Shown: positions 55,843 through 63,719 of the stretch, one piece after another
How positions within the stretch are numbered: the first letter of the stretch is position 1
Layout of the letters: each line of letters opens with the position of its first letter
Origin: an uncultured Planctomycetales bacterium
GTDB taxonomy: Bacteria > Planctomycetota > Phycisphaerae > UBA1845 > Fen-1342
Assembly (NCBI GenBank): GCA_964462635.1
Contig: CAYWYJ010000002.1
Location: 4,047-68,046 of the forward strand
Length of the DNA: 64,000 nucleotides
Direction of reading: 5' to 3'
The notes under the pieces: generated by a model
Told to the model about the DNA's origin: nothing
What the model saw: the letters and a program-made list of their open reading frames with translations, nothing else
Databases searched by the model: none
Translations under genes and position numbers: made by a program

Positions 55843-56559
55843 CTAGCGCCGACGCAGAGCCAGGCCCGCCAGGCCGAGGAGCATCAGGCTCGCCGGCTCG
55901 GGGACGCAGACGACCTTGTTCAGCGTGCGAACGCTGGGGTTCTGGCCTTCCGCGTAGTTGACCGGGGTCTGGCCGTAGCTCAGGGTCATCTCGCCCGGGC
56001 ACACGCCGCACTTGACAGCGCCGAGCAAGAAGACGCGGTCGGTGCCGCCGATGTAGAGGTTCCACGGCAGGTTGCTGTTGCGGTTGGTGACGCCAAAGGC
56101 GGTGACCGCAACCAAGCCGGCCGGGTTGAAATAGAAGACCTCATCATCGCCGTCCCAGCGCTTGGCGCCGATGTCCTCGTCGTCGAGGTTGTTCAGCGCG
56201 TACCAAGCGATGTTACCGACGCCGGGCAGGCCGCCGTTGACGTTGATCGAGATGCCGTTGATCTTGGCGCCAACCGGCTCATCAACGAAACGGCCCCAAA
56301 CGTACGCCCACTGCGTCGGGGCGTTCGGCTCGCAGTTGAGCTCGACGTTAGCCATGCCGACCGCGGCCGGGGGGGCGCCAGCCGGCGACAGCTTGTACCC
56401 GTCGATATAATCCGTCTTGTTGCCCTTGCTGTGCAAGAAGGCAAGCGCCGGATTATTCAGCCCGTACGGATCCAGGCTGCTGGTGAAGAAAAAGTCGACG
56501 CTGGCCGTTGCTGAAACGGCGAGCGTGACCAACAGGGACAGACACAATATCCTCTTCAT
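55843..56559 (-). CDS. PEP-CTERM sorting domain-containing secreted protein
   Basis: Signal peptide MKRILCLSLLVTLAVSATA and C-terminus VPEPASLMLLGLAGLALRRR (PEP motif, TM, basic tail). The start is taken at 56559 (GGAG spacing is better); ATG 56565 is an alternative. Confidence 0.85.
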   Translation of the reverse strand: MKRILCLSLLVTLAVSATASVDFFFTSSLDPYGLNNPALAFLHSKGNKTDYIDGYKLSPAGAPPAAVGMANVELNCEPNAPTQWAYVWGRFVDEPVGAKINGISINVNGGLPGVGNIAWYALNNLDDEDIGAKRWDGDDEVFYFNPAGLVAVTAFGVTNRNSNLPWNLYIGGTDRVFLLGAVKCGVCPGEMTLSYGQTPVNYAEGQNPSVRTLNKVVCVPEPASLMLLGLAGLALRRR

Positions 56560-57010
56560 ACCCATTCTCCCTCAAGCTTTCTGTTTGCCAGTGGAGTTTG
56601 CCTCCAAACCTCCTGAAGACCATCGTCCGACGTGGGTGACGCTCACCCTTCCTCTCACAAACTAGTTTATACCCCGCGCGCCGCGCGATTGCAAGCGATT
56701 TCTTGGCCCAATTTTTCGTGAGCGCCCCGTATCGGGCAGGATCGGGTGGCGCCGCGGCCACTTCGCGGCCTTATCTCCGCCACCGGCGGCAAAAGAAGAC
56801 CGTAAGTAATTATTGCACGTAAGTTTATGAAAGAACAACCCTCCAGGCCCGTGTTCAAAGTACTCCTCGCCGCGGGAACACCGCAGGTTCCCTCGCGGCA
56901 TGGCCCGCTCAGACCGCGCCAGCCGCACCCGGCCAACTCCGGCGGCGCCGCGCACGCATGAACTTCGTGCTTGCGTGGTATCAACGGCTGGGCTATATTA
57001 TCGGCTCAGG

Positions 57011-57016
57011 TACAAT
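57011..57016 (+). promoter_or_regulatory. Candidate -10 hexamer TACAAT upstream of smc
   Basis: ctcagg-TACAAT-atgttg lies about 62 nt upstream of the proposed smc GTG, in a lower-GC intergenic region. Confidence 0.3.
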
Positions 57017-57077
57017 ATGTTGTAGGCGCGGTTGTCGGTGCAGCGGACCCCGTACGCCGACATTGTGGGTCGTTTTG

Positions 57078-60000
57078 GTGTTCCTCAAGCGCATCATCCT
57101 GCACGGCTTCAAGAGCTTCGCCGACCGAACGGAATTTGAGTTCGGATCAGGAGTTACAGCGATTGTCGGGCCCAACGGCTGCGGCAAGAGCAACGTCCTC
57201 GACGCCGTCCGGTGGGTGCTGGGCGAGCAATCGCCCCGCAACCTGCGCGGGGGAAAAATGGCGGACGTGATTTTCGCCGGCTCCCGCTCCCGCCCCCCCG
57301 CCCCCTTCGCCGAAGTGCAGCTTATTTTCGACAACCGGGGTGGGCTGCTGCACTGCGACGCGGAAGAAGTGATCGTCGGGCGGGTGCTGTACCGCGCCGG
57401 CGTCAGCGAATACCGCCTCAACGGCAACGCCTGCCGCCTGAAGGAAATCCGCGAATTGCTGCTGGACACCGGCGTCGGCGTGGACGCCTACAGCGTCATC
57501 GAGCAGGGCCGCGTGGACCTCCTGCTGCAATCCAACCCCGTCGAACGCCGCGAAATCTTCGAGGAAGCGGCCGGCATCAGCCGCTACAAGTTCCGCCGCG
57601 CCGAGGCCCAGCGCCGGCTCGAGCGCACCGACGCCAACTTGCAGCGCTTGCAAGATGTTCTAGAGGAACTGGAGCGGCGGCTGCGCAGCGTGCGCCTGGC
57701 CGCCGGCAAGGCCCGCAGCTTCCAGCAGTACGACGCCCAGTTGCGCAGCCTGCGTTCGACCTTCTCGTTGGCCGAGTTTCACGAACTGGAGCAGCAGCGG
57801 CAGCGGGCCCAGGCTGCCGCCGATGACCTGACGGCCCGCCTGGCCCAGCGGCGGGCCGAGCTGGCCGCCCGCGACGCGGAGACGGCCGAGATCGAAGAGG
57901 CCCGGCAGCGTCTGGATGAGGAAATCCAGGCGGCGGAGGCGGCGCTGCTCGACGTGCAGACGACGCTGGGGGCGCTGGCCGAGCGCATCGACCAGGTTGA
58001 GAAGCGTCTGCCCGAGTTGGCGGCCCTGGGTGAGCGGCGGCAGCGGCAGGCGGCGGACGCCGCCGCTCGCCTCGCGGCCCAGCAGGAGCGTCTGGCCCAG
58101 GAGGCCGAAGCGCTCGAGGCGCTGCGGGCGCGCGAAGGCGAGACCGCCACCCTGGTGGCGCAGCTTCAACAGGAGCGGCAGGCGGTGGAGTCGCAGGCCG
58201 CCGCCGCCCGCCAGGCCCTGGAGGCGGAAAAGCGGGCGGCGTTTGAGGCGGTGCGGCAGGCCGCCCTGCTGCAAAACGAGCAGGAAAACCGCCGGCAACA
58301 GCTCGCCCGCTTGTCCGCCCAAACCCAGCGGTTGGATGAACGGCAGGCCGAGTTGACGCGGGAGCACGCCGCGGCGGAGGCTGCCCTGGCCACGCAGACG
58401 GCCGCGTGGCAGCAGCTCGACGCGCGACTAGGCGAGTTGACGGCGGCCCTGCGCGACGATGAGGCCCTGTGGCGAACCTCCGTCAACGAGGCCGAACAAC
58501 TCGATCAGGCGATCGGGGTGGCCAAAGAGCAGCGCAGCGCGCTGCTGTCGCGCCTGTCCGTGCTCGAAGACCTTGAGCGGCGCCTGGAAGGCGTCGACCA
58601 GGGGACCCGCGCGGTCCTGGCGTGGCGTGCCGACGAGCGCGGCCGCCAGCTCGTGGCCGGTCTCGTCGCCGACCTGCTCCGCATCGACGACCCCCGCGTG
58701 GCCCTGCTCCAGCCCGTGCTGGCCACGTTCGAGAACCACCTCGTCGTGCGGGACACGGCGGCGTTCCTGGCGGAACGGCATGAGCGCGGCGTATCGGACG
58801 GGGCCCTGCGCGTGCTGGCGCTGGATCGACTCGGCCGCGGCAGCCCGCCGCTGGGCTATGGGCACACCGCGGGCGTGGTGGCGCGGGCCGCGGACTGGGT
58901 GACGTGTGCCGCGGAGTTCCGCCCCCTCGCCGAGCATGTCCTGGGTCGCGTGTTCATCGTGGATTCGCTCGACCTGGCCCTGCGGTTGGCCGCCGAAGCC
59001 CTGGCCGGGTGCGTGTTCGTCACGCTGGCCGGCGAGGTGGTCGGGGCCGACGGGCGGCTGACGTTCGGTGCGACCGTGGCGGCGACGGGGCTCATCAGTC
59101 GTCGGTCCGAGATTCGGCAATTGGGCGCTGAGCGGGACGAGGTGGAGGGCCGTCTGGTCCAGCTCACGCGCCGGCGGCTGGAACTCGACGCGACGATGTC
59201 GGACCTCCAGTTGCGCAAGGACGGGCGGCTGAGCCAGATTGCCGGCCTTCAGCGGGAGCACGCCGACGTTCGTCACCAGCAGACCGCGGCGGCGGCGACG
59301 GCCGAGCGACTACAGAAGGAAGCCCGGCTCGTCCGCGAGGAGCTGGCGGCGTTGTCGCGGGCGCGGGAGGAGCTGGCACAGCAGTTGGAGTCCTTGCGCC
59401 GCGCGGGGCAAGACGCCGGCGAGGCGCAGCAGGCCCACGAAGAGCGCGTGGCGAACCTGGCCGCTGATCTGGCCCAACACGAGGCGGCGGTCGCGCGGTT
59501 GGTGCATCGGCACACCGACGCCCAGGTCGAATGTGGACGGGCCACGGAAAAGCGGTCGGCGGCGGAACAGGCGTTGGCGGAACTCGAAGCCCGTGCCGCG
59601 GCGATTGTCGCGGAGCAGCGCGCGGCCGAGGACGAAGCCGCCGAGACGCGGCGCCAACGCGAAGCCGCCCTGGCCGAACTCCAGTCCGCTCGGCAGCAAC
59701 AGGCGGAATTGCAGGCCGCGTGGCAGGGGCGACAGGCCGCGCTGCTGGCCCGCCGTGAGGCCCGCCAGCAGGAGCGCCAACGACTCGAGGCGTGCGGCGC
59801 CGCGGGCCGGGCGATCCAGCACCAGATCGAGGAACTGGAAGCCGAACTCCACGCTTGCCAGATGGAGCTGCGCGAGAGCGCGGTGCGGGCCGAGAACCTG
59901 GTCGCCCGCGTGCGCGAGGAGCTGGGGCTGGACCTTACCGAGCTCTATCGTACCTACGAGCACGCCGAGCAGGATTGGGAGGCGGTCCGGGCCGAGATCG

Positions 60001-60647
60001 AGGACCTGCGCGGCAAGATCGCCCGCCTCGGCCATGTGAACCTGGATGCCCTGGCCGAGCTCGAGGAGCTGACGCCGCGCTACGAGCACCTGACATCCCA
60101 GCGGGAGGACCTGACGGCGGCGCGGCGACGGCTGGAAGCGCTGATCGCGGAGCTGGACGAGCGCTCGCGGACGCGCTTCGCGGCGGCGTTCGACGAAATT
60201 CGCGGGCATTTTCAGGAGATGTTCCGCAAACTCTTCGGCGGGGGGAAGGCCGACGTCGTGCTGGAAGACCCGGAGCGGCCGTTGGAGTGCGGCATCGAGA
60301 TCATCGCCCGGCCGCCGGGAAAAGAGCCGCAATCCCTGTCGCTGCTGTCGGGCGGGGAAAAGACGATGACCGCGGTGGCGCTGCTGTTGGCGGTGTTTCG
60401 CAGCCGGCCGTCGCCGTTCGCTTTTCTGGATGAAGTCGACGCGGCCCTTGATGAAGCGAACATCGAACGCTTCAATAGCGTCCTGCAGGAGTTCCTGTCG
60501 CATTCGCAGTTCGTGGTCATCACGCACAGCAAGCGGACGATGGCCGTTGCCGATGTGTTGTATGGCGTGACGATGGAAGAGCCGGGCGTGAGCAAACGCG
60601 TCAGCGTCCGGTTTGAAGATCGCGTGCGAACGCCCAGTGTGGCGTGA
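57078..60647 (+). CDS. smc: Chromosome segregation protein SMC
   Basis: The GTG start gives [39 protein letters not shown]. It has long coiled coils, a hinge region, and the C-terminal [18 protein letters not shown] and [10 protein letters not shown]. The listed ORF 56958.. has a spurious N-terminal extension. Confidence 0.95.
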
Positions 60648-60687
60648 GCGGTGTTTCGTTTCCGGATCCCTGTTTTGAGGTAGCGCC

Positions 60688-60819
60688 ATGGCAAAGAAGA
60701 AGAAAGCCGCGAAGAAGAAGAAGGGCACGAAGAAGAAGACCGCCAAGAAGCGGAAGGGCACCAAGAAGAAGGCCAAGCGCAAGGCCAAACGCTCCAAGAT
60801 GAGCTGCGGGCCCTGCTAG
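60688..60819 (+). CDS. Small highly basic lysine-rich protein (43 aa) ending in SCGPC
   Basis: Below the ORF-track size cut-off. GAGG lies 8 nt upstream of the ATG, 40 nt after the smc stop on the same strand. The translation is MAKKKKAAKKKKGTKKKTAKKRKGTKKKAKRKAKRSKMSCGPC. Lysines are almost all AAG, consistent with host codon bias. Confidence 0.5.
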   Translation: MAKKKKAAKKKKGTKKKTAKKRKGTKKKAKRKAKRSKMSCGPC

Positions 60820-61068
60820 CGGTCCAAGGAACTCGGCCGGGCGCCGCGACCTGGGACCGGCGCTGCGATCATGCTGTGGCGTGACTCGGCAGCGCGAGCA
60901 TCCCGGACGCGGGGCCCCGCCGAACGGGGCACAGGCCCACAGCGCGGTCCCGCCTGAGGGCGGGAGGCTGTGAGCGATCGACCGGCGTCATCGGCGCCGT
61001 TTGATCGCTGACAGAAACGCGCGGGGCGTGTGCCTCTTTCTTGCGCGCCCCATGCCGCGCCGCCGCGG

Positions 61069-62682
61069 TCACATCCGATGCGCAAGAATGACGGTGATGT
61101 CGTCGGGTTGGGAACCGCCCTCTGTGAAGTTGCGCAGGTCGGTCAGCATCTCCTTGAGCATGGCGCTGGCCAACTGCCCGAACCCGTCGCAGAGGATGTT
61201 CACGAAGCGCTCCTCGCCGAACACCTCGTCGCGGCGGTTCTTGGCGGTGACGACGCCGGGCGTGAACAGCACGAGCGTCTCGTCCGGTTCGAGTTGCTCC
61301 GAAAGCAAGGGGTACACCGTTGCCTTGGCCGTGCCCAGCGGCACGGTGGGTTCCTCGCCTCCCAGCGGACGGGCCTCGCCGCGCTGGCCGATGATGTACG
61401 CGCCGAGGTGACCGGCCAGGGCGTAGCGTGTCAGGCCGCTCGCCGGGTCGATGACGCCGACGAAGCACGCCAGGGGATGGTCTTTCTGTCCGTCGTACAT
61501 CAACCAGTTCAACATACGCAGGCAGACGCCCGGGTTGTCCTGGTGCATGACCGCGGACCGGAACGCGGTCTGGGCCTGGACCAGCAGCAAGCTGGGCAGG
61601 GCGCCGGCGGCCGGCGTGTAGGCGATCATCAGGGCCGCCAGGTTGTTGGACAGCCGCACGACATCATAGATGTCGCCGCTGCGTTCGCGCCCGGGCTCGC
61701 GAAACGCCCCGAAGACCAACTCGTTTTCCCACTGCGGGAGCTTCCGCGGGGTGAGCCGGGCCTGGATTTCGTGCGCGACGCTGACCTGCCCGTCGATCAA
61801 CGCGGCCCGGTTGCGGGCCGTGACCTTGAAGATGGCGTCGAGCTGGTGCGCGAAGATGTTGAGTTGCAGGATGAAGTAGTCGAGGTCGGGGGTCTCATAA
61901 CGCCGACCCGATTCTCCGCTGTCCAGGTAAACCATGCCGAGGGTGCCGTCCGGCCCCAGCAGGGGACCGGCCAGGACCGACATCGGCTCCTCGCGGCTGA
62001 CCCGCGGCACCAGGACGAACTGCGCCCGGTCGAGGGCGCGCGGCTTGAGCTCGTGGCCGAGTTCGGGCAAGTCGGTGGTCTGTCCCGTGATCAGCCGCCC
62101 TTCCTCGTACTCCATCGGTCCGTAGCTCAGTCGCCGGACGCCGATCCAGGCCCGCTGCGCCGCGAATGCCGCCAGCAGACAGCCGAGGGCCGCGTCCATC
62201 AGCTCTTCGACTGTCTGGTTGCCGGAGGCGGCCAGGCTGGCGCGACCGACCCCCGCCAGGTGTTCGGGCTGCACGGTCAACAGGTCGCTGCTCTTCTTCA
62301 GGAGGGCCCCCGCCGGCAAGCGGGCCTGGGCGAACCGCTCGAGCTGCGCGCGGGTGGTCCCGAGCGTCGCCCGGGCCGCCGGCTGCTCGTCGTACTCCGG
62401 GTACACGCGAATCTTGAAATCGAGGAGAGTGATCTCGTCCCCCGTCGACAACTCGGCCTGCTCGCGCACCACCATGCCGTTCAGGCGCAGCTCGCAGCTC
62501 GCGTCGAGCTGCTGCAACAGCCAAGCGCCGTCCCGCTCGGGGATGATTACCGCCTGCTGGGGGGCGATGCGGTTGTCGCCCAGCCGCACGCGGCACTCCT
62601 CGCGCGATCCGACGTAGACCGCCTCGAGTCCGCAGACCACGTCGGCCACCATCGCGTCGTTTTGCAGGACGATGAGTCGCAT
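61069..62682 (-). CDS. FHA domain + GAF-like domain + PP2C/SpoIIE-family protein phosphatase
   Basis: The N-terminal FHA-like segment is VYVGSREECRVRLGDNRIAPQQAVII...LNGMVV....L..GDEITLLDFKIRV. The central GAF-like segment is ...RAWIGVRR...GMVYLDS. The C-terminal SpoIIE blocks are SGDIYDVV, LVLFTPGV and GGSQPDDITVILAHR. Confidence 0.88.
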   Translation of the reverse strand: MRLIVLQNDAMVADVVCGLEAVYVGSREECRVRLGDNRIAPQQAVIIPERDGAWLLQQLDASCELRLNGMVVREQAELSTGDEITLLDFKIRVYPEYDEQPAARATLGTTRAQLERFAQARLPAGALLKKSSDLLTVQPEHLAGVGRASLAASGNQTVEELMDAALGCLLAAFAAQRAWIGVRRLSYGPMEYEEGRLITGQTTDLPELGHELKPRALDRAQFVLVPRVSREEPMSVLAGPLLGPDGTLGMVYLDSGESGRRYETPDLDYFILQLNIFAHQLDAIFKVTARNRAALIDGQVSVAHEIQARLTPRKLPQWENELVFGAFREPGRERSGDIYDVVRLSNNLAALMIAYTPAAGALPSLLLVQAQTAFRSAVMHQDNPGVCLRMLNWLMYDGQKDHPLACFVGVIDPASGLTRYALAGHLGAYIIGQRGEARPLGGEEPTVPLGTAKATVYPLLSEQLEPDETLVLFTPGVVTAKNRRDEVFGEERFVNILCDGFGQLASAMLKEMLTDLRNFTEGGSQPDDITVILAHRM

Positions 62683-62868: not shown

Positions 62869-63246
62869 TCAGCCGCCGGCGGGGGCCGGGGCCCCGACGA
62901 CGTGTTTGACCTTGGCCGCCAACTGGTCCGGCGAGAAGGGTTTGATGAGGTAGTCGTTGGCGCCGGCCTTGATGGCCTCGATGACGCGGGACTTCTCGGC
63001 CTCCGTGGTGACCATGATGACCGGGGTCTTGTTGCCCGCTTGACGGATGGCCCGCAAGGCGTCGATGCCGCTCATCTTGGGCATGTTCCAATCCAGCAGG
63101 ATCAGGTCGTAGCCGCCGCCCTGGAGGGCCTTGACCGCTTCCATGCCGTCGCCGGCTTCGGTCGCCTCGTTGATCCCGACCATCCCGAGGGCCTTGATCA
63201 CAATCCGCCGAATCGTCATCGAGTCGTCGACGACCAGTGCTTTCAT
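62869..63246 (-). CDS. cheY: CheY-like single-domain response regulator
   Basis: MKALVVDDSMTIRRIV...LILLDWNMPKMSG...VIMVTTE...DYLIKPF. Confidence 0.9.
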   Translation of the reverse strand: MKALVVDDSMTIRRIVIKALGMVGINEATEAGDGMEAVKALQGGGYDLILLDWNMPKMSGIDALRAIRQAGNKTPVIMVTTEAEKSRVIEAIKAGANDYLIKPFSPDQLAAKVKHVVGAPAPAGG

Positions 63247-63257
63247 ACCGCAGCCCT

Positions 63258-63719
63258 TTAGTTCGGGTTGTAGGTCACTTCCAAGGTGAAGTTGCCCGCC
63301 TCGGACGTAAACGGGACTTCCAGCCAGACCGACTTGCTGGGGTACTTCAGCTTGTAGCCGGTCCCCTCCACCACGGTGGGCAGTCCGAGTTCGAGCGGCG
63401 GCTCGAAGTGGAACTTGGCCTTCGCCGACCCAGCCACCATGTTGACGATTTCCGAGATCGCGTCGATGACCTCATCGTTCACCGTCTTCGTCTCCGCCCC
63501 GAGCATCCGGCCGGCCAGGGCCAGGGCGGTCTTCGGGGGGAAGCGGAGGGCCACCACGCCGCTGACCTTCCCGCTCAGGCCCACGAGCGACGTGATGACT
63601 TCGCCGACGGCGCGCCCGTCGCTGACCTTCAGGCCGTTCCGCTTGGGCGTCACGCCGAGCATCGTCGTGAACACCGTGTCGACGGACTCGATGAAGGGGT
63701 TGATGTAACTGACGTCCAC
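63258..63719 (-). CDS. cheX: Chemotaxis phosphatase CheX
   Basis: GTG start with GGAGG 7 nt upstream. INPFIESVDTVFTTMLG...SLVGLSGKVSGVVALRFP...A..MLG.......DEVIDAISEIVNMVAGSAK is typical of CheX. Confidence 0.85.
   Translation of the reverse strand: MDVSYINPFIESVDTVFTTMLGVTPKRNGLKVSDGRAVGEVITSLVGLSGKVSGVVALRFPPKTALALAGRMLGAETKTVNDEVIDAISEIVNMVAGSAKAKFHFEPPLELGLPTVVEGTGYKLKYPSKSVWLEVPFTSEAGNFTLEVTYNPN

Follow-up and report, generated by a model that had tools for sequence, protein, structure and literature searches.

A Lysine-Rich Micro-Gene Directly Behind smc in an Uncultured Planctomycete Family and Its Candidate Histone-Tail-Like Product

Introduction

The folding of bacterial chromosomes is usually described in terms of SMC complexes and of folded nucleoid-associated proteins, among them HU, IHF, H-NS, and Fis. 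Here we analyze a micro-gene of 43 codons that lies directly behind smc, the gene of the condensin ATPase, in a 64,000-nucleotide (nt) stretch (the window) of contig CAYWYJ010000002.1 from an uncultured planctomycete of the class Phycisphaerae, and that encodes a peptide made up largely of lysine. Across the 40 genera of the family to which this genome belongs, the only gene that stays beside smc is this free, tail-only polycation. All coordinates are window positions, and the source assembly, G000, comprises 3.78 Mb in 187 contigs, is 93% complete, and has a GC content of 69.1%.

Several described systems invite comparison. In eukaryotes, the linker histone H1 has a C-terminal tail that, like the tail-only H1 of kinetoplastids, belongs to the disordered polycations rich in Lys, Ala, and Thr, which neutralize linker DNA and aid compaction through their charge; the micro-gene differs in being bacterial, in lying beside smc, and in having neither a globular domain nor detectable homology. 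Protamines are short polycations in which Cys cross-links between neighboring molecules lock the condensation of DNA, and in the zinc hook of Rad50 one Zn2+ ion is bound between two SMC-like molecules, each of which contributes a CxxC motif. Both serve as analogies only, the peptide being based on Lys, not Arg, carrying Cys in 13 of the 41 family genomes, having no homology to either, and binding metal only hypothetically.

Closer in lineage is the chlamydial protein Hc2 (HctB), which is regulated late in development. Its length is reported to vary with the number of Lys-rich repeats (PMC2848022), and this parallels the sevenfold length range of the micro-gene family. Hc2 is a Lys/Ala-rich, repeat-built, acid-free polycation that condenses DNA and comes from a bacterium of the PVC (Planctomycetes–Verrucomicrobia–Chlamydiae) superphylum; the micro-gene family likewise shows a short-repeat composition and a variable copy number, and for its peptide DNA binding is predicted. 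The two differ in size (165–237 residues in Hc2, 15–109 here), and Hc2 has neither linkage to smc nor a Cys tail. AlgP of Pseudomonas and the H1-like proteins of Burkholderia and Bordetella (NF038053) are further bacterial Lys/Ala-rich repeat proteins, of roughly 200–350 residues with KPAA-type repeats. AlgP, itself H1-like and Lys-rich, is reported to lie at polyphosphate granules and to space them (PMC9239181). In Actinobacteria, the Lys-rich PAKKA/AKKA tails of HupB, Ku, and TopA are reported to raise DNA affinity or processivity (PMC3553676, PMC7398561); those tails are fused to folded domains, whereas the micro-gene encodes a free-standing tail.

Lys-rich H1-like proteins and tails are thus already known in bacteria, and what appears new, judged against the literature available in part, is a free, tail-only micro-protein that invariably follows smc. 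In the same partly accessible literature, neither Lys-rich genes behind smc nor micro-proteins of this kind in Planctomycetota turned up as the subject of a paper.

A Family-Wide Gene Behind smc

In the window, smc occupies 56958..60647 on the plus strand as its longest open reading frame (ORF), with Pfam matches to SMC_N (E = 8.9e-69) and SMC_hinge (E = 3.4e-10); since the SMC_N match starts at residue 42, the true start may lie about 40 codons inside this frame. Its stop codon, TGA at 60645..60647, is separated from the ATG of the micro-gene by a 40-nt pyrimidine-rich leader (60648..60687, plus strand), whose GC content of 57.5% compares with 69.1% for the genome and which carries GAGG at 60677..60680, 7 nt ahead of the ATG. 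This leader is likely the ribosome-binding region of the micro-gene. The latter spans 60688..60819 on the plus strand, with 43 codons and a TAG stop, and an ORF listing returns exactly the peptide that an earlier note on this DNA had quoted for this position. The peptide has 21 Lys and 3 Arg, no acidic residue, and a net charge of +24; Lys and Arg together make up 24 of 43 residues (56%), short of the two thirds given in that note. It ends in Cys-Gly-Pro-Cys (60805..60816, plus strand), a lineage-specific form of CxxC tail.

Since a low-complexity peptide is a poor probe for similarity searches, relatives were approached by synteny, that is, by reading the DNA beyond the end of each smc. As the anchor we used the C-terminal 200 residues of SMC, which were found in 61 of 61 relatives. 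Membership in the micro-gene family was defined by an ATG-GCN-AAR start in the same orientation as smc and 30–62 nt beyond its stop, a leader rich in T and C that carries GAGG, a Lys content of 40% or more, and the absence of acidic residues, all of which are features of the window's micro-gene. A mostly-Lys ORF with the ATG-GCN-AAR start follows smc on the same strand in all 41 genomes of the family, representing 40 genera (31/31 of the first loci, 6/6 further genomes, and 4/4 added later), which answers the earlier note's doubt as to conservation in relatives and shows that the Lys frame, not just the tract, is kept. Among the 37 tabulated orthologues the gap to smc measures 30–62 nt (30–47 nt in 36 of them) and the product 15–109 residues (median 32), whereas 22–27 residues are found in the four orthologues added later.

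No Lys-dense ORF occurs within 600 nt after smc in any of 23 genomes from ten sister families of the order (a 24th locus, where no smc end could be recognized, stands outside this count), and no poly-Lys ORF follows smc in 25 genomes from eight further families of the class. Public records held 80 entries with SMC relatives, 63 with a recognizable gene end, and the micro-gene was present in the eight closest only. These eight are metagenome-assembled genomes (MAGs) of Phycisphaerae/Planctomycetota, four of them duplicates of genomes already counted; one Pirellulales locus among the records has an unrelated Lys-dense frame. A pattern search for the MAKKK start was unfit for judging linkage, as many proteins begin in this way (187 of 201 genomes class-wide among the matches listed), and smc-anchored loci were used instead.

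The gene on the 3′ side of the micro-gene differs between genera. In G000 and three others it is a convergent gene for an FHA-SpoIIE phosphatase, and in five it is a convergent permease-like gene. Because this neighbor changes, smc is the gene to which linkage is conserved. G000 encodes ScpA and ScpB elsewhere, so that the SMC complex is canonical and the peptide an addition to it.

As a separate observation on SMC itself, its C-terminus in many other families of the class (loci L179–L204) carries acidic or Pro/Ala/Glu-rich extensions, for example E/A-rich ones, and the SMC of the micro-gene family stops soon past a conserved VSVRF motif (compare 60600..60644 in the window).

The Lys Frame Is the Selected Frame

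It may be asked whether the locus is a gene in the first place, given that genomes of high GC content are rich in spurious ORFs and that no predicted protein is on record for it. An AAG-type purine tract might be maintained as an RNA or DNA structure or as a protein-binding site and remain open by chance. Indeed, an ORF with a start codon spans the tract in one alternative frame in 10 and in the other in 19 of the 41 genomes. Frame analysis largely refutes this explanation. In all 41 genomes the Lys frame opens with ATG-GCN-AAR and closes with a stop codon, and the mean GC content at third codon positions (GC3) is 0.89 in this frame (0.93 in G000) as opposed to 0.31 and 0.41 in the other two. 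In Ala, Thr, and Val codons the third base varies freely while the first and second are fixed. Arg often replaces Lys and is encoded by CGN in 71 of 92 cases, so that the positive charge survives substitutions of two or three bases, unlike what a nucleotide-level constraint on an AAG tract would produce. A Shine-Dalgarno sequence is conserved at the right distance, and a natural variant carries an indel of exactly 3 nt, in frame. We regard the non-coding explanation as essentially excluded.

Natural variation agrees with this picture. Relative to the same-genus genome G001, the 132 nt of the ORF hold a single difference, which replaces Lys by Arg, as against 14 differences, including one gap, over the 132 nt that follow and three in the 40-nt leader; for the ORF versus the following 132 nt, Fisher's test gives p = 0.0007. 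Variants of the ORF in environmental RNA contigs comprise two synonymous changes (60753 and 60804), one 3-nt in-frame deletion, and a G-to-C change at 60808 that yields G41R and leaves C-R-P-C with both Cys kept. Frame-disrupting indels, which the earlier note had named as a reason for doubt, are not among these variants.

The composition of the 37 tabulated orthologues is narrow, with K 53%, A 21%, T 9%, R 5.5%, V 3.8%, G 2.3%, and S 2%. Among 1,697 residues there is not a single D, E, N, Q, H, W, or Y. Lys is encoded by AAG 818 times and by AAA 63 times, the corresponding figures for the genome at large being 9,854 and 1,211. Selection acts on charge and composition, not on fold or sequence, and the number of repeats therefore drifts, giving products of 15–109 residues. 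The combination of such length plasticity with an invariant composition makes the family a clean case of selection on charge over sequence.

Taken together, the micro-gene is very probably a genuine coding gene. Two other identities were considered and rejected. A fusion to SMC by read-through or frameshifting is ruled out, as the phase of the ORF to smc takes all three values (17, 11, and 13 of 41 genomes) with stops between, and a type I toxin is ruled out because the peptide has no hydrophobic segment.

Composition, Databases, and Protein Families

The density of Lys sets the locus apart from the rest of its genome. In 1,237 long ORFs of high GC3, used as proxy genes of G000, Lys makes up 2.4% of residues. 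When the whole assembly was scanned in six frames, windows of 20 residues with at least eight Lys occurred in two places only, the micro-gene, which reaches 13 Lys in 20, and an unrelated frame of 1,230 residues, which reaches eight; at least nine Lys per 20 residues is found at the micro-gene locus alone in any frame of the 3.78-Mb assembly. Along with its recurrence in 41 of 41 family genomes, this agrees with the earlier judgment that the composition is not accidental. The same note had linked the tract to an antisense ORF at 59310..60797, and this frame does mirror smc together with the AAG tract; its Phe-rich part, said to be at the end, is in fact N-terminal, the frame starting at 60797 on the minus strand.

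The micro-gene, which the earlier note had already called unlisted, seems to escape gene callers. The exact peptide is absent from about 15 billion predicted proteins, as are five relatives of 30–109 residues, although a result of 0/6 in an exact look-up means that the proteins are not on record as such, given that gene callers may use other starts. A word-indexed protein search returned 829 candidates, none with E at or below 0.001, the low-complexity query being a poor probe. A genome similarity search with the 43-residue peptide recovered only the same-genus copy in G001 (98% identical) and one orthologue with 75% identity. The locus is thus an example of how annotation misses abundant micro-proteins, if abundance is borne out.

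With regard to known families, the window's peptide matches no Pfam or NCBIfam model (Pfam up to E = 10). Four of five long orthologues score 8.4–11.3 bits (E = 0.36–2.8) against HC2 (PF07382), for which the cut-off is 40, and the fifth gives no match; against NF038053, the Burkholderia-type H1-like model, long orthologues reach at most 13.7 bits (E = 0.054–3.5; cut-off 80). The globular winged-helix domain of linker histones H1/H5 (PF00538) is without a Pfam match in a peptide that is of low complexity throughout. Thioredoxin (PF00085) has no Pfam match either, and 43 residues are too few for its fold of about 100. For ribosomal proteins there is no Pfam or NCBIfam match, in a family whose length varies sevenfold. 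In the ESM Atlas the nearest entries are unnamed clusters of hypothetical proteins of 36–52 residues (0.90–0.93), and the nearest cluster bearing a family is HC2 at 0.81, both to be taken as leads only. The peptide is thus H1-tail- or Hc2-like by composition and not a demonstrable family member. The likeness to H1 and Hc2 proposed in the earlier note stands for composition; as a family assignment it does not, the matches being below threshold and confined to long orthologues.

Expression Signals and the 3′ Region

In the 37 aligned spacers between smc and the micro-gene, a T/C-rich run precedes (T)GAGG, and many continue with (T)GCGCC-ATGGC, which runs into the start codon. Orthologues stop with TAG in 26, TAA in nine, and TGA in two cases, a distribution that differs from that of proxy genes in the genome (TAG 402, 33%; TAA 146, 12%; TGA 658, 55%), with the reservation that TGA avoidance among orthologues is not phylogenetically independent. 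A scan of 60300..61200 for sigma-70-like promoters found none, planctomycete promoter types being outside its coverage.

Near-identical DNA occurs in bioreactor-sludge metagenome runs and, in small shares, in six metatranscriptome runs. Contigs from RNA libraries cover the ORF in four of four runs from four studies; they are assembled metatranscriptome sequences of close relatives (94–98% identity), carry no strand information, and may include carried-over DNA, and parts of smc without contig cover were given no weight. In run X15 a contig spans 60575–60838 with six mismatches at a word depth of 2.7, with no other smc contig in the run. Run X17 has a contig at 60632–60776 (depth 11; smc contig 3.7), run X18 one at 60688–60929 (depth 7.3; smc contig 2.9), and run X16 one at 60749–60971 with a depth of 281, next to smc contigs at 3.6–4.4. 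Into the 3′ spacer, RNA contigs extend as far as 60838, 60841, 60929, and 60971. Since the contigs of X15 and X17 join the 3′ end of smc to the ORF, these data support transcription of the locus in continuity with smc RNA, in line with the co-transcription considered in the earlier note, and the micro-gene probably lies on the same transcript as smc. The depths also give a hint that RNA of the ORF and its 3′ region is considerably more abundant than smc mRNA; an origin of the depth-281 contig from repeats is ruled out, the 3′ spacer being single-copy in G000.

This spacer (60820..61068, plus strand, 249 nt) separates the micro-gene from the convergent gene and is highly structured, with a folding z-score of −5.07 and none of 200 shuffles folding equally well. 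Weak terminator-like hairpins lie at 61017..61036, and Rfam has no match in 60500..61150. The spacer is a probable 3′ untranslated region (UTR) or terminator region, and RNA from it could stem from a stable 3′ UTR, from RNA processing, or from antisense transcription.

The layout of these signals raises the possibility that the act of translation matters and the peptide does not, with ribosomes on the 3′ end of smc mRNA setting SMC levels. They could do so by blocking Rho or 3′ exonucleases, or could tune decay through slow decoding of poly-Lys. Such a role would suit a strong, conserved leader always 30–62 nt past smc, an ORF that is always last before a variable and often convergent neighbor, a highly structured 3′ region, and a peptide free to vary in length and sequence. 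Yet parking a ribosome has no need of so strict a composition, with no acidic residue in 1,697 and CGN Arg standing in for Lys. Slippery, stalling AAA codons are outnumbered by AAG 818 to 63, roughly as in the genome, and some genomes have stand-alone paralogues away from smc. We consider this cis-acting explanation quite improbable.

The Cys Tail

The C-terminal Cys-Gly-Pro-Cys of the window's peptide is found in three of 41 genomes (G000, G001, and G026). Other tails of the CxxC type are CRRC in G012 and CKKC in G247, which belongs to the closest other genus by SMC identity (87%), so that C-terminal CxxC of any kind amounts to 5/41; eight more genomes have a lone terminal or near-terminal Cys, and C-x4-C and CC tails occur in further public MAGs. 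Any Cys is present in 13 of 41 genomes, always within the last five residues, as are all 16 Cys codons of the 37 tabulated orthologues, and 28 of 41 genomes have none. The final residue is Cys in 12 and Met in six of 41. Against a Cys background of 1.26%, 12 terminal Cys correspond to a naive binomial P of 9e-14 that ignores phylogeny. The Cys-bearing genomes are mostly the nearest relatives by SMC, the counts are not independent, and the underlying events are few.

The placement of Cys at the last residue does look non-random, and the tail is probably a recurrent functional addition, for instance a metal or disulfide bridge between peptides. With CGPC in 3/41, CxxC in 5/41, and any Cys in 13/41, it is an addition of a sub-clade and not the core of the family's function.

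Related mini-ORFs exist away from smc. In three family genomes a further poly-Lys mini-ORF, unlinked to smc, carries a tail with a pair of Cys (L090:1455-1544, minus; L091:1470-1550, plus; L092:1368-1523, minus), and in 3/3 of them the smc-linked copy has no Cys. Two genomes of the sister family f6, which has no smc-linked gene, hold three more (L085:1524-1589, minus; L086:1490-1594, minus; L087:1537-1605, plus). These unlinked mini-ORFs encode 22–52 residues with CC, C-x3-C, or CC-x-C tails, apart from L087, which has no Cys, and run X15 includes one transcript-like contig of the Cys-tailed kind.

G000 also encodes, on contig C152:5890-6810 (plus strand; locus L261:191-1108), a protein of 306 residues in three parts, namely, an H1-like N-terminal tail of about 100 residues that starts with MAKKK and is rich in Lys, Arg, and Ala, a linker rich in Pro, and a peroxiredoxin domain of the AhpC/TSA type (PF00578, E = 1.1e-45, residues 159–286). 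Over 28 nt, the start region of its gene is 93% identical to that of the micro-gene. Its tail may tether this peroxiredoxin to the nucleoid. A protein that starts with MAKKK and is Lys-rich and then Pro-rich within its first 140 residues, the part that was read, occurs in most family genomes.

The earlier note had read CGPC as a thioredoxin-like redox motif. Taken to its full extent, this would make the dithiol or metal site the primary function and the poly-Lys stretch a mere nucleoid tether. The confinement of Cys to the extreme C-terminus, as the last residue in 12/41 (naive P = 9e-14), speaks for it, as do the recurrence of CxxC tails (CGPC, CRRC, CKKC, with C-x4-C and CC in further MAGs), the environmental variant C-R-P-C with both Cys retained, and the Lys-tailed AhpC/TSA peroxiredoxin of the same genome with its near-identical start region, which makes a nucleoid thiol redox pair conceivable. 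C-G-P-C is indeed shared with the WCGPC site of thioredoxin, the family having CRRC or CKKC elsewhere. Nonetheless, 28 of 41 members have no Cys and only three have CGPC, and redox chemistry is therefore not the conserved function of the family. Nor is there a thioredoxin fold or family match, and the Cys genomes cluster among the closest SMC relatives, so their counts are not independent. The thioredoxin-like reading is not supported, and a primarily redox-active peptide is very improbable.

A Candidate Polycation Partner of SMC

The gene is real, conserved, linked to smc, represented in RNA libraries, and of the composition stated above. On balance, and with modest confidence, we favor the reading that the last cistron of the smc unit encodes a histone-tail-like polycation that binds and condenses DNA together with SMC; for a nucleoid or DNA-condensing role as such, which draws on analogy, we see about an even chance. 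Ribosomes would start on the unstructured U/C-rich leader with its GAGG Shine-Dalgarno sequence and produce, from the smc transcript or one overlapping smc, an intrinsically disordered polycation free of acidic, aromatic, and amide residues. The peptide would bind the DNA backbone electrostatically, neutralize its charge, and bridge or condense the DNA, in the manner of the H1 C-tail and of chlamydial Hc2. Production alongside SMC could make it the counter-ion or condensing partner for chromosome compaction and segregation driven by SMC-ScpAB. In the sub-clade that includes this genome, the C-terminal CxxC or single Cys may add an optional metal or disulfide cross-link between peptides.

Several considerations weigh against this reading. 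Translation, DNA binding, cooperation with SMC, and Cys cross-linking are all steps that we infer, and gene order is the sole link to SMC function. DNA is not a preferred ligand of polycations, which bind RNA, ribosomes, polyphosphate, and acidic membranes just as readily. Sequence searches gave no significant homologue, so the H1/Hc2 analogy is one of composition. The RNA contigs are strand-less, possibly carried-over DNA, and from relatives (94–98% identity), not from the exact strain; a contig covering two genes is no proof of a single transcript, and the high depth of the 3′ contig could equally reflect a separate promoter, a processed stable RNA, or antisense RNA. Finally, Lys-rich tails, being present on HU-like proteins and a peroxiredoxin as well, may be a general habit of the lineage and need not be SMC-specific.

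On the last point, HU/IHF-like proteins of 106–117 residues, called as such by eye, carry a short Lys-rich N-terminal extension with a MAKK(K) start; one is encoded on contig C17 of G000 (start 4979, minus strand), and others at L084, L094, L095, L214, L222, and L233.

We rank the alternatives in the order of a general polyanion binder, the cis-acting translated element, the redox or metal function, and the non-coding tract. The first would have the peptide coat RNA or ribosomes, or organize polyphosphate granules, with its place beside smc a historical accident that provides housekeeping expression. A pure polycation without any specificity element is what such a role calls for. AlgP is reported to space polyphosphate granules (PMC9239181), near-identical DNA comes from bioreactor-sludge metagenome runs, and unrelated proteins of the same genomes have Lys-rich tails. 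Moreover, an apparent RNA abundance far over that of smc suits an abundant structural polycation better than a stoichiometric partner of SMC. Strict linkage to smc over 40 genera, while the downstream gene changes, speaks instead for a functional tie, and a spread of 15–109 residues is unlike ribosomal proteins, which fit fixed pockets of ribosomal RNA and of which, as of other families, Pfam and NCBIfam show no match. We hold the general polyanion binder to be unlikely, if the foremost of the four.

A bolder extension of the SMC-partner reading, which we offer as speculation and judge decidedly improbable, is a bacterial "protamine" in the smc operon, whose CxxC tails would share Zn2+ in the manner of a zinc hook or form disulfides. 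The resulting switchable DNA bridges would couple compaction to thiol redox state, with the Lys-tailed C152 peroxiredoxin as a possible oxidant sensor on the nucleoid or partner of this switch.

Should the peptide bind DNA, it would represent a minimal natural form of the H1-tail or protamine principle placed beside condensin. It would also offer a simple system for understanding how loop extruders and charge-neutralizing polycations cooperate, one for which a synthetic peptide suffices.

Neighboring Genes

The convergent gene beyond the spacer, at 61069..62682 on the minus strand, encodes an FHA-SpoIIE (PP2C-type) phosphatase (Pfam SpoIIE, E = 6.4e-27; FHA, E = 1.2e-06); it is outside the unit of smc and micro-gene and marks the end of that unit. 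Past it follow a CheY-like response regulator (62869..63246) and a CheX phosphatase (63258..63719), both on the minus strand. Upstream of smc, on the opposite strand, 55843..56565 (minus) encodes a PEP-CTERM-anchored protein (PF07589, E = 5.5e-05).

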